Of a stretch of 47,326 nt of DNA, positions 22,686-23,918 are shown in pieces. The stretch comes from Escherichia phage Lambda imm434. Position 1 is the stretch's first letter. Each line of letters opens with the position of its first letter. The position numbers and the translations under genes are program-made. The stretch lies in sequence record OM418626.1, one strand, 5' to 3'. The notes under the pieces were generated by a model. That model worked only from the letters and a program-made list of their open reading frames with translations. It was not told the DNA's origin and searched no databases.

Positions 22686-23918
22686 TCAATTGTTCATAGT
22701 GTTTACATCACCGCCAATTGCTTTTAAGACTGAACGCATGAAATATGGTTTTTCGTCATGTTTTGAGTCTGCTGTTGATATTTCTAAAGTCGGTTTTTTT
22801 TCTTCGTTTTCTCTAACTATTTTCCATGAAATACATTTTTGATTATTATTTGAATCAATTCCAATTACCTGAAGTCTTTCATCTATAATTGGCATTGTAT
22901 GTATTGGTTTATTGGAGTAGATGCTTGCTTTTCTGAGCCATAGCTCTGATATCCAAATGAAGCCATAGGCATTTGTTATTTTGGCTCTGTCAGCTGCATA
23001 ACGCCAAAAAATATATTTATCTGCTTGATCTTCAAATGTTGTATTGATTAAATCAATTGGATGGAATTGTTTATCATAAAAAATTAATGTTTGAATGTGA
23101 TAACCGTCCTTTAAAAAAGTCGTTTCTGCAAGCTTGGCTGTATAGTCAACTAACTCTTCTGTCGAAGTGATATTTTTAGGCTTATCTACCAGTTTTAGAC
23201 GCTCTTTAATATCTTCAGGAATTATTTTATTGTCATATTGTATCATGCTAAATGACAATTTGCTTATGGAGTAATCTTTTAATTTTAAATAAGTTATTCT
23301 CCTGGCTTCATCAAATAAAGAGTCGAATGATGTTGGCGAAATCACATCGTCACCCATTGGATTGTTTATTTGTATGCCAAGAGAGTTACAGCAGTTATAC
23401 ATTCTGCCATAGATTATAGCTAAGGCATGTAATAATTCGTAATCTTTTAGCGTATTAGCGACCCATCGTCTTTCTGATTTAATAATAGATGATTCAGTTA
23501 AATATGAAGGTAATTTCTTTTGTGCAAGTCTGACTAACTTTTTTATACCAATGTTTAACATACTTTCATTTGTAATAAACTCAATGTCATTTTCTTCAAT
23601 GTAAGATGAAATAAGAGTAGCCTTTGCCTCGCTATACATTTCTAAATCGCCTTGTTTTTCTATCGTATTGCGAGAATTTTTAGCCCAAGCCATTAATGGA
23701 TCATTTTTCCATTTTTCAATAACATTATTGTTATACCAAATGTCATATCCTATAATCTGGTTTTTGTTTTTTTGAATAATAAATGTTACTGTTCTTGCGG
23801 TTTGGAGGAATTGATTCAAATTCAAGCGAAATAATTCAGGGTCAAAATATGTATCAATGCAGCATTTGAGCAAGTGCGATAAATCTTTAAGTCTTCTTTC
23901 CCATGGTTTTTTAGTCAT
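22686..23918 (-). CDS. ea47: Ea47, b2-region protein of unknown function
   Basis: ORF 22686..23945 with start taken at MTKKPWERRL (23918); strongly AT-rich coding sequence. Confidence 0.8.
   Translation of the reverse strand: MTKKPWERRLKDLSHLLKCCIDTYFDPELFRLNLNQFLQTARTVTFIIQKNKNQIIGYDIWYNNNVIEKWKNDPLMAWAKNSRNTIEKQGDLEMYSEAKATLISSYIEENDIEFITNESMLNIGIKKLVRLAQKKLPSYLTESSIIKSERRWVANTLKDYELLHALAIIYGRMYNCCNSLGIQINNPMGDDVISPTSFDSLFDEARRITYLKLKDYSISKLSFSMIQYDNKIIPEDIKERLKLVDKPKNITSTEELVDYTAKLAETTFLKDGYHIQTLIFYDKQFHPIDLINTTFEDQADKYIFWRYAADRAKITNAYGFIWISELWLRKASIYSNKPIHTMPIIDERLQVIGIDSNNNQKCISWKIVRENEEKKPTLEISTADSKHDEKPYFMRSVLKAIGGDVNTMNN

Follow-up and report, generated by a model that had tools for sequence, protein, structure and literature searches.

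Lambda is the reference temperate phage, and the genes of its b region have gone without an assigned function for more than 50 years, being routinely deleted or used as cargo sites. What does one of these genes, ea47, do for the phage or for the cell that carries it? Our analysis of a 47,326-bp stretch of an imm434-type lambda hybrid (hereafter, the window) leads us to an answer in several layers. Within lambda, ea47 forms an accessory cassette ('moron') of its own that was acquired horizontally. That the biological role of its product is anti-phage defence or exclusion we regard as an even chance, and the full proposal, namely that Ea47 works by itself as an HEPN-like factor for abortive infection or exclusion and has a sensor at its C-terminus, is offered tentatively, as possible rather than probable. 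The gene itself has long been known. What appears to be new relative to the available libraries and papers is the size of the family, its distribution outside phages, the independence of ea47 from ea31 and ea59, and an HEPN-like domain featuring a His/Lys switch together with a reciprocal histidine.

The starting point is a gene that says little about itself. The initial annotation had described a 410-residue protein, Ea47, encoded by a very AT-rich gene without recognisable motifs. The region 22400-24500 is 100% identical to lambda records and has the same coordinates as in NC_001416, therefore the gene name is correct; the product (410 aa, 48.1 kDa, pI 8.0) is likewise 100% identical to the lambda protein. 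The longest minus-strand open reading frame containing the gene spans 22686..23945 (419 aa), and its in-frame ATGs at 23945 and 23930 have no Shine-Dalgarno sequence and do not coincide with the starts of homologues in an alignment of 62 sequences. ATG 23918 is the right start, because 61 homologues in that alignment, taken from other genera, begin at the equivalent M-x-KKPWERRL and a GGAG lies 6 nt upstream. The impression of a very AT-rich gene is borne out by a GC content of 0.314 versus 0.501 for the whole window, with 0.491 for the adjoining tfa. PHROG 19262 (unknown function) matches Ea47 at E = 2.6e-295, and the precomputed tag of Ea47 is PF26900 'Phage_lambda_Ea47', with 'Ea47 family protein' as the NCBI name. 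Sequence searches of Pfam (local copy), NCBIfam, PADLOC and PDB sequences all came back blank, so that the absence of recognisable motifs holds at the level of libraries; none of the PADLOC-DB v2 models of known or candidate defence proteins matched Ea47 either. The literature is similarly sparse. In the papers searched we found no assigned function, domain or fold for Ea47 and no mention of the 'Ea47 family' or PF26900. A CRISPRi map classes the gene as non-essential (PMC10695390), and cargo is routinely inserted in its place (PMC11980383). In a microarray study it was among five extra lambda ORFs with transcripts at least 2-fold up in lysogens, a signal that for ea47 is a 2-fold microarray value and that its authors flagged as needing follow-up (PMC1151598). 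The features of the locus are collected in Table 1.

Table 1. Features of the ea47 locus and of the adjacent ea31-ea59 pair (window coordinates)
Feature	Coordinates	Strand	Remarks
Inverted repeat CCGCAGAAACGTT...AACGTTCTGCGG	22573..22606	.	12-13-bp stem, near-perfect; in the 128-bp convergent tfa-ea47 gap
ea47 CDS	22686..23918	-	410 codons plus TGA stop at 22686-22688
C-terminal alpha/beta domain, residues 253-380	22779..23162	-	Acidic, pI 5.6; moderately conserved
Hypervariable segment, residues 185-252	23163..23366	-	Least conserved part of the protein
Middle alpha/beta region, residues 94-184	23367..23639	-	Beta-hairpin 94-116, helix 118-135, strand 145-154, helix 162-183
N-terminal helical bundle, residues 1-93	23640..23918	-	Helices 5-22, 27-50, 58-70, 74-89; pI 9.2
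Motif R83-N84-T-I-E-K88	23655..23672	-	C-terminal end of helix 74-89; translation verified
Shine-Dalgarno GGAG of ea47	23925..23928	-	6 nt 5' of ATG 23918; direct sequence reading
Upstream non-coding region travelling with ea47	23919..24256	-	AT-rich; presumed promoter/regulatory region
ea31	24509-25399	-	PDC-M01B, E = 5.8e-113; weak HNH match
ea59	25396-26973	-	PtuA (PDLC00282), E = 8.8e-185; PDC-M01A, E = 8e-202

The flanks of ea47 indicate that it travels as a unit. The gene had been described as standing alone, about 590 bp from ea31, and the distance is exactly 590 bp; it stands alone, moreover, in a stronger sense than was meant, for in wild E. coli lambdoid prophages ea47 comes after tfa and is carried without ea31 or ea59. 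Nucleotide homology to two such prophages runs from tfa through ea47 and ends at 24256 or 24289. Because the homology breaks inside the 590-bp gap, this gap is, as far as the sequences indicate, the junction of two modules, and ea47 brings about 340-370 bp of its own upstream DNA. The latter includes an exact TTGACA at 23992-23997, and the annotators of the HK629 record marked a promoter in the region upstream of ea47. Our promoter scan found sites no more numerous than in shuffled sequence, and the ea47 promoter is therefore presumed rather than demonstrated. The same gap contains a 69-codon ORF with a GTG start (24108-24317, minus strand), for which HK629 and certain other lambda-like records have the label 'hypothetical protein'; it is unlikely to be a conserved gene, because the homology breakpoint (about 24256-24289) falls within it.

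On the other side, ea47 and tfa/orf-194 are convergent and 128 bp apart. The predicted RNA fold of 22541-22700 (plus strand, -44.2 kcal/mol) contains the stem formed by the inverted repeat listed in Table 1, which a simple terminator scan left unreported because it has no T-run. We consider this hairpin a plausible candidate for a bidirectional terminator bounding the ea47 module; it may stop late rightward transcription, leftward ea47 transcription, or both. A separate observation concerns the adjoining gene: the Rfam family RF02111 'IS009' has a full-length match at 22316-22514 on the plus strand (224 bits versus a gathering score of 117, E = 2.7e-56), located wholly in the 3' part of the tfa/orf-194 coding sequence. 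RF02111 is probably an sRNA candidate family first defined on a cryptic-prophage tfa homologue.

Although Ea47 is the founder and namesake of Pfam PF26900, 'Phage_lambda_Ea47', phages account for very little of this family. A search of a 5.8-billion-protein index returned 454 relatives at 90% clustering, nearly all of about 410 residues, and the 120 best listed of these 454 all carry the PF26900 tag; an exhaustive profile search extended the family to at least 1,308 clusters at 50% identity. Members are found in Gamma-, Beta- and Alphaproteobacteria, on actinobacterial plasmids and in a Cyanobium genome, as well as in metagenome-assembled genomes assigned to Chitinophaga, Bacteroidota and Verrucomicrobia. 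Homologues abound in bacterial chromosomes, islands and megaplasmids at loci whose surroundings are free of phage genes, and Ea47 is present in 121 of 5,426 complete E. coli genomes. Among 50,697 phage genome records, it occurs in just 17, all lambda-like and at least 99% identical. Because many bacterial clusters stand against these 17 lambda-like records, the family is basically a cellular or genomic-island one, with lambda as an unusual carrier.

Two observations made along the way concern individual records. Phage O276 (MH547045 / NC_049951) retains only residues 1-323 of Ea47, at 99.7% identity, and the corresponding part is annotated as 'orf401' and 'ABC binding cassette-like'; this copy, which adjoins an ea59-like gene, seems to have been truncated or recombined. 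In addition, lambda DNA encoding proteins of 99-100% identity turns up in assemblies of Streptomyces, Neobacillus, Oceanobacillus, Leeuwenhoekiella, Pseudomonas, Fusobacterium and Chromatium (coverage of the contigs, where named, is mostly about 0.8-2.5x, with one at about 9.6x), and lambda appears as 48.5-kb 'plasmids' in Salmonella, Stenotrophomonas and Paenibacillus records. Lambda DNA in the records of such unrelated organisms is almost certainly control or spike-in contamination. 'Campylobacter phage CJLB-4' (48,361 bp) is 100% identical to lambda over the 2.1-kb region compared.

By our own gene calls, the GC content of the Ea47 gene is lower than that of its flanks in 55 of 57 homologue loci, with a median difference of -8.4 points. 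No conserved partner gene was found among five genes on each side in these 57 loci, the commonest neighbour cluster being present in 6. Thus, ea47 is a solo, horizontally mobile cassette. Homologues adjoin integrases or sit at prophage ends. In Pectobacterium, the homologue is next to an integrase in an island with AbiTii, FRG, DUF5677, Barstar and a UvrD helicase; in Shewanella, it adjoins RloB and an AAA_15/21 ATPase; on an Arthrobacter plasmid, it adjoins a PIN protein, a recombinase and an IS21 element. Elsewhere, one homologue adjoins an IS91 transposase, another occupies the nin region of a lambdoid prophage in Cronobacter, and a third lies directly upstream of an N6_N4 methylase and ResIII helicase pair resembling a type III restriction-modification (R-M) system. 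In a Vibrio prophage, the homologue has the integrase on one side and, on the other, a module of two genes that includes an SMC-like ATPase. Among the 150 nearest neighbours, we counted matches to Resolvase, Phage_integrase and LmuB (4 each), TIR_2, PLDc_2 and DrmC (2 each), and LmuA, dGTPase, QatC, QatD and HamA (1 each), all of these being raw counts with no background control. This looks like a defence-island habit, again as read from counts without a background control, and some homologue loci have housekeeping neighbours only, with no visible defence or mobility genes.

A few of these loci deserve a separate remark. In the Vibrio parahaemolyticus prophage, the two-gene module (11483-14349) is directly 3' of the Ea47 homologue and encodes proteins of 371 and 584 residues, the latter with a weak SMC_N match; this prophage end probably stacks the Ea47 homologue with a Lamassu system, because LmuB and LmuA matches were present in the pooled neighbour scan. 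Several relatives of 575-930 residues have C-terminal SEC-C plus TPR or TPR-S extensions, and one has an N-terminal DUF5677. Membership of Ea47 itself in DUF5677 was considered and rejected, as hhalign of the Ea47 family profile against the Pectobacterium DUF5677 neighbour gave a probability of 0.04%.

What kind of protein, then, is being mobilised? The AlphaFold2 model of Ea47, obtained with the 62-sequence alignment, is confident (pLDDT 89.7, pTM 0.88) and divides the chain into the four regions of Table 1. Residues 1-93 are the most conserved part of the family, with 47 of 93 columns at least 90% conserved. The middle region contributes the pan-family residues S96, R150, W152 and E161. Conservation then drops in the hypervariable segment, where the mean top-residue frequency is 0.40 (A1) or 0.25 (A4), and recovers in the C-terminal domain, which contains D271-G-Y-H274, D297, K301, E325-x-W327 and E347. 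For this C-terminal domain no counterpart was found among solved structures, and a BFVD structure search with Ea47 returned only uncharacterised phage proteins; going by the model, about 80% of the protein is without a recognisable solved fold. A PD-(D/E)xK nuclease was considered for the C-terminal domain because of D289/D297...E325, and it was rejected, as the domain does not show a restriction-endonuclease-like alpha-beta-beta-beta-alpha-beta fold combined with a D...(D/E)xK motif.

The remaining fifth is more informative. We propose that residues 1-93 form an HEPN-like effector domain, HEPN being an RNA-cutting domain characteristic of suicidal anti-phage systems. The structures behind this lead are the HepT toxins 7ae2, 5yep and 8xdj and Csm6 (6tug), together with 4nqf, 1ylm, 1wwp, 2hsb, 3jrt, 1jog and the C-terminal domains of four nucleotidyltransferases. 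HEPN domains are defined as four-helix up-down bundles in which helices 2 and 3 are often separated by an insert; helix 3 ends in Rx4-6H, whose Arg is followed by a polar residue, and helix 2 contributes an acidic residue. The His is essential in every characterised HEPN RNase, and a conserved His elsewhere is described for variant families that have lost the one in the motif (PMC3710099). In Ea47, a short extra helix (58-70) precedes the motif helix (74-89), whose end bears the most conserved motif of the family, A-R83-N84-x-I-x-K88-x-G-D91-L-x3-S96. In the family alignment R83 never varies, and conservation reaches at least 90% at both N84 and K88. Apart from Lys in place of His, the sequence agrees with the HEPN motif in its Arg and Asn, in its spacing and in its location at a helix end.

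This replacement is systematic. Position 88 is Lys in all 237 motif matches among 267 family proteins, so lambda Ea47 and the main clade, reading R83-N84-x3-K88, lack the His that defines Rx4-6H. There is, however, a sister clade in which the same alignment columns read R-[N/D]-x3-H in 13 of 13 sequences. This His clade, which includes the Arthrobacter plasmid protein, belongs to the same family: all its members are PF26900-tagged, and the Arthrobacter member aligns with the Ea47 family profile over 380 columns at an hhalign probability of 99.95%. The helix-2 acid follows the same division. The lambda clade has no conserved acid there (helix 27-50 presents R42, T45, F46 and Q49), whereas in the His clade, of the 11 sequences that cover the column of lambda F46, 9 have Asp. 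The switch is coordinated across columns (lambda numbering): from the Lys clade to the His clade, column 42 changes from R to mostly Q, column 46 from F to mostly D, column 88 from K to H, and column 90 from G to A (K in one member). The switch even has a counterpart in the C-terminal domain, where column 274 is H in the Lys clade and not His (A in most members) in the His clade. The pattern is thus reciprocal, K88/H274 in the lambda clade versus H88 without His at 274 in its sister, and the alignment suggests that H274 may supply the His absent from the HEPN position of the lambda clade. Both clades share R9, Y24, R31, N35, K52, W78, R83, N/D84, D91, S96, R150, W152, E161, E325, W327 and E347.

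How far does this resemblance carry? The HEPN families in Pfam, NCBIfam and PADLOC and the HEPN chains in PDB were matched neither by lambda Ea47 nor by 62 family members nor by the His clade, for which PADLOC as a whole gave no match of substance. Because there is no HMM-level link, even for the His clade, we use the term HEPN-like for the domain and do not count lambda Ea47 among HEPN members. On balance, we lean towards the N-terminal domain being truly of HEPN descent. The best-surviving rival holds that the bundle is not HEPN at all, that it belongs to a new type of enzyme or binding protein, and that its R-N-x3-K/H likeness arose by convergence. The His clade, with its motif His and, in most sequences, an Asp in helix 2, speaks for HEPN descent; we consider convergence somewhat unlikely.

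If the domain is HEPN-like, a mechanism can be sketched. The basic N-terminal bundle would be a divergent HEPN-type domain that binds and probably cleaves RNA, with a predicted site composed of R83-N84-x3-K88 together with Y24, R31, R42, K52, D91, S96, R150 and E161. The C-terminal alpha/beta domain, which we propose to be sensory or regulatory, would hold the effector inactive and sense a trigger from the infecting phage, and its H274, possibly contributed to the active site, may stand in for the His missing from the HEPN position. In some relatives, the appended SEC-C/TPR module may add to this sensor role or replace it. What the data show directly is the gene with its start, the family, its solo mobility, its neighbourhoods and conservation pattern, the resemblance in fold of the N-terminal domain and the His/Lys switch between clades; that Ea47 is homologous to HEPN, acts as an RNase, divides into effector and sensor and protects against phages are parts of the scheme that we infer.

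The initial annotation had guessed, from size and position, that Ea47 might be an abortive-infection or exclusion factor. This guess has gained circumstantial support, because Ea47 is encoded by a solo, mobile, AT-rich cassette placed next to integrases and defence modules, is nearly absent from phages, has relatives fused to SEC-C/TPR(-S), possesses an HEPN-like domain and is reportedly expressed in lysogens. Sequence and structure searches also failed to relate Ea47 clearly to any phage protein of structural or housekeeping type, an outcome that had been named as evidence against the guess. The guess is not proven, because the papers searched describe no phenotype for Ea47; no exclusion phenotype of the lambda b region turned up in them either. 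To our knowledge, none has been mapped to the b region in decades of lambda genetics.

Much of the same evidence can be read differently. Ea47 might be a lysogenic-conversion factor acting outside phage conflict, in stress response, RNA metabolism or regulation, or an addiction-type toxin that stabilises its element. The low GC content, the upstream region of its own and the terminator-like hairpin are moron-like features of the kind known from lom and bor, the housekeeping surroundings of some homologues fit such a role, and so does the reported expression in a lysogen (PMC1151598). However, integrases, resolvases and known defence systems turn up repeatedly around the homologues, no antitoxin-like conserved partner was seen across the 57 loci, and the basic bundle with R-N-x3-K/H points to nucleic-acid chemistry typical of conflict systems. 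We therefore regard conversion or addiction as unlikely.

A still weaker case can be made for Ea47 as a counter-defence or host-takeover protein, produced early from pL to neutralise host immunity or remodel nucleic-acid metabolism. Ea proteins are classically produced early in lytic growth from pL, a timing that would suit such a role, and by its name as well as by classical data Ea47 belongs with the N-dependent early proteins encoded in the b region. Like anti-defence genes, ea47 can be dispensed with in laboratory K-12 hosts, and its product has low-confidence two-hybrid contacts with N and U (PMC3224144). Nevertheless, this explanation is quite improbable for a family that is essentially absent from phages outside the lambda-likes and abundant in bacterial genomes away from phage genes, whose 410-930-residue proteins with TPR sensor fusions are atypical for anti-defence, and whose lambda member has its own upstream region, lies at the prophage end far from pL and is reported to be expressed in a lysogen (PMC1151598).

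Returning to the preferred reading of Ea47 as a defence or exclusion factor, the closest functional precedent would be, by analogy, HepS, a solo HEPN abortive-infection protein with anticodon nuclease activity. Its gene sits in an accessory slot of Gifsy-1, a lambdoid prophage of Salmonella; HepS is made constitutively, and the J protein of siphoviruses triggers it (PMC13043305). Both are products of a single gene in a lambdoid accessory slot, are expressed from the prophage without a partner and have an HEPN-type domain as the likely effector. HepS differs in being shorter than 250 residues and having a canonical R100-x4-H105, whereas Ea47, at 410 residues, has about 320 extra residues and Lys for His; there is no detectable sequence relationship between the two, and for Ea47 the role is predicted from sequence and model. 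The single-protein HEPN Abi or defence proteins AbiD/AbiF (= Abi_2), AbiU2, AbiV and ApeA (PMC3710099) offer a second comparison. Like Ea47, they are (nearly) stand-alone proteins of a few hundred residues found in mobile elements and defence islands, sometimes beside R-M systems, as is one His-clade Ea47 homologue. However, the Pfam and PADLOC models for Abi_2, AbiU2, AbiV and ApeA match no Ea47 family member, R-N-x3-K is the motif of the main Ea47 clade, and the C-terminal domain of Ea47 shows, within the reach of our tests, no relationship to theirs.

The third comparison lies next door. The products of ea59 and ea31, whose genes overlap by 4 bp, resemble by their matches a defence module of the Septu type (PtuA/PtuB), so that lambda appears, judging from these matches, to carry a two-gene ATPase and HNH defence system beside ea47. 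The pair is of defence type and shares with ea47 the AT-rich b-region island and the strand; it is separate from Ea47 in that wild prophages carry ea47 alone and Ea47 has no ATPase or HNH features. A bolder alternative reading combines these elements: Ea47 would represent a widespread new class of single-protein immune effectors in which Lys replaces the catalytic His of an HEPN-type RNase site, H274 is supplied in trans from a new sensor fold, and the site is completed or held apart by inter-domain movement on trigger binding, giving the lambda b region two immune systems, Ea47 and the Septu-like Ea59/Ea31, besides RexAB and SieB. In its entirety, this reading is a long shot.

Even the more modest preferred reading would have consequences. 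If Ea47 is an HEPN-like solo defence protein, what passed for a classic 'junk' gene of lambda turns out to serve lysogens as an immune gene against competitors, and a family of at least 1,300 clusters from several bacterial phyla, mostly Pseudomonadota, which PADLOC v2 does not see at present, gains a testable function. The natural His/Lys switch with its reciprocal His would then be a ready-made experiment on the divergence and gating of HEPN active sites. Lambda vectors without an intact ea47 may differ from the wild type in the resistance of their lysogens to other phages. Our findings make the function of a classic 'dark' gene of lambda directly testable.

As for the window itself, rexA, rexB and lambda cI should be missing from it, because it is an imm434-type hybrid. 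The lambda OR1 operator is absent from the window even at 3 mismatches. Within 34500-39500, 70% matches lambda and the rest matches phage 434 (98%), while phage Chlobot matches at 98.5% over the full 5 kb. At 1,176 bp less than the 48,502 bp of lambda, the length of the window would fit a whole hybrid genome.
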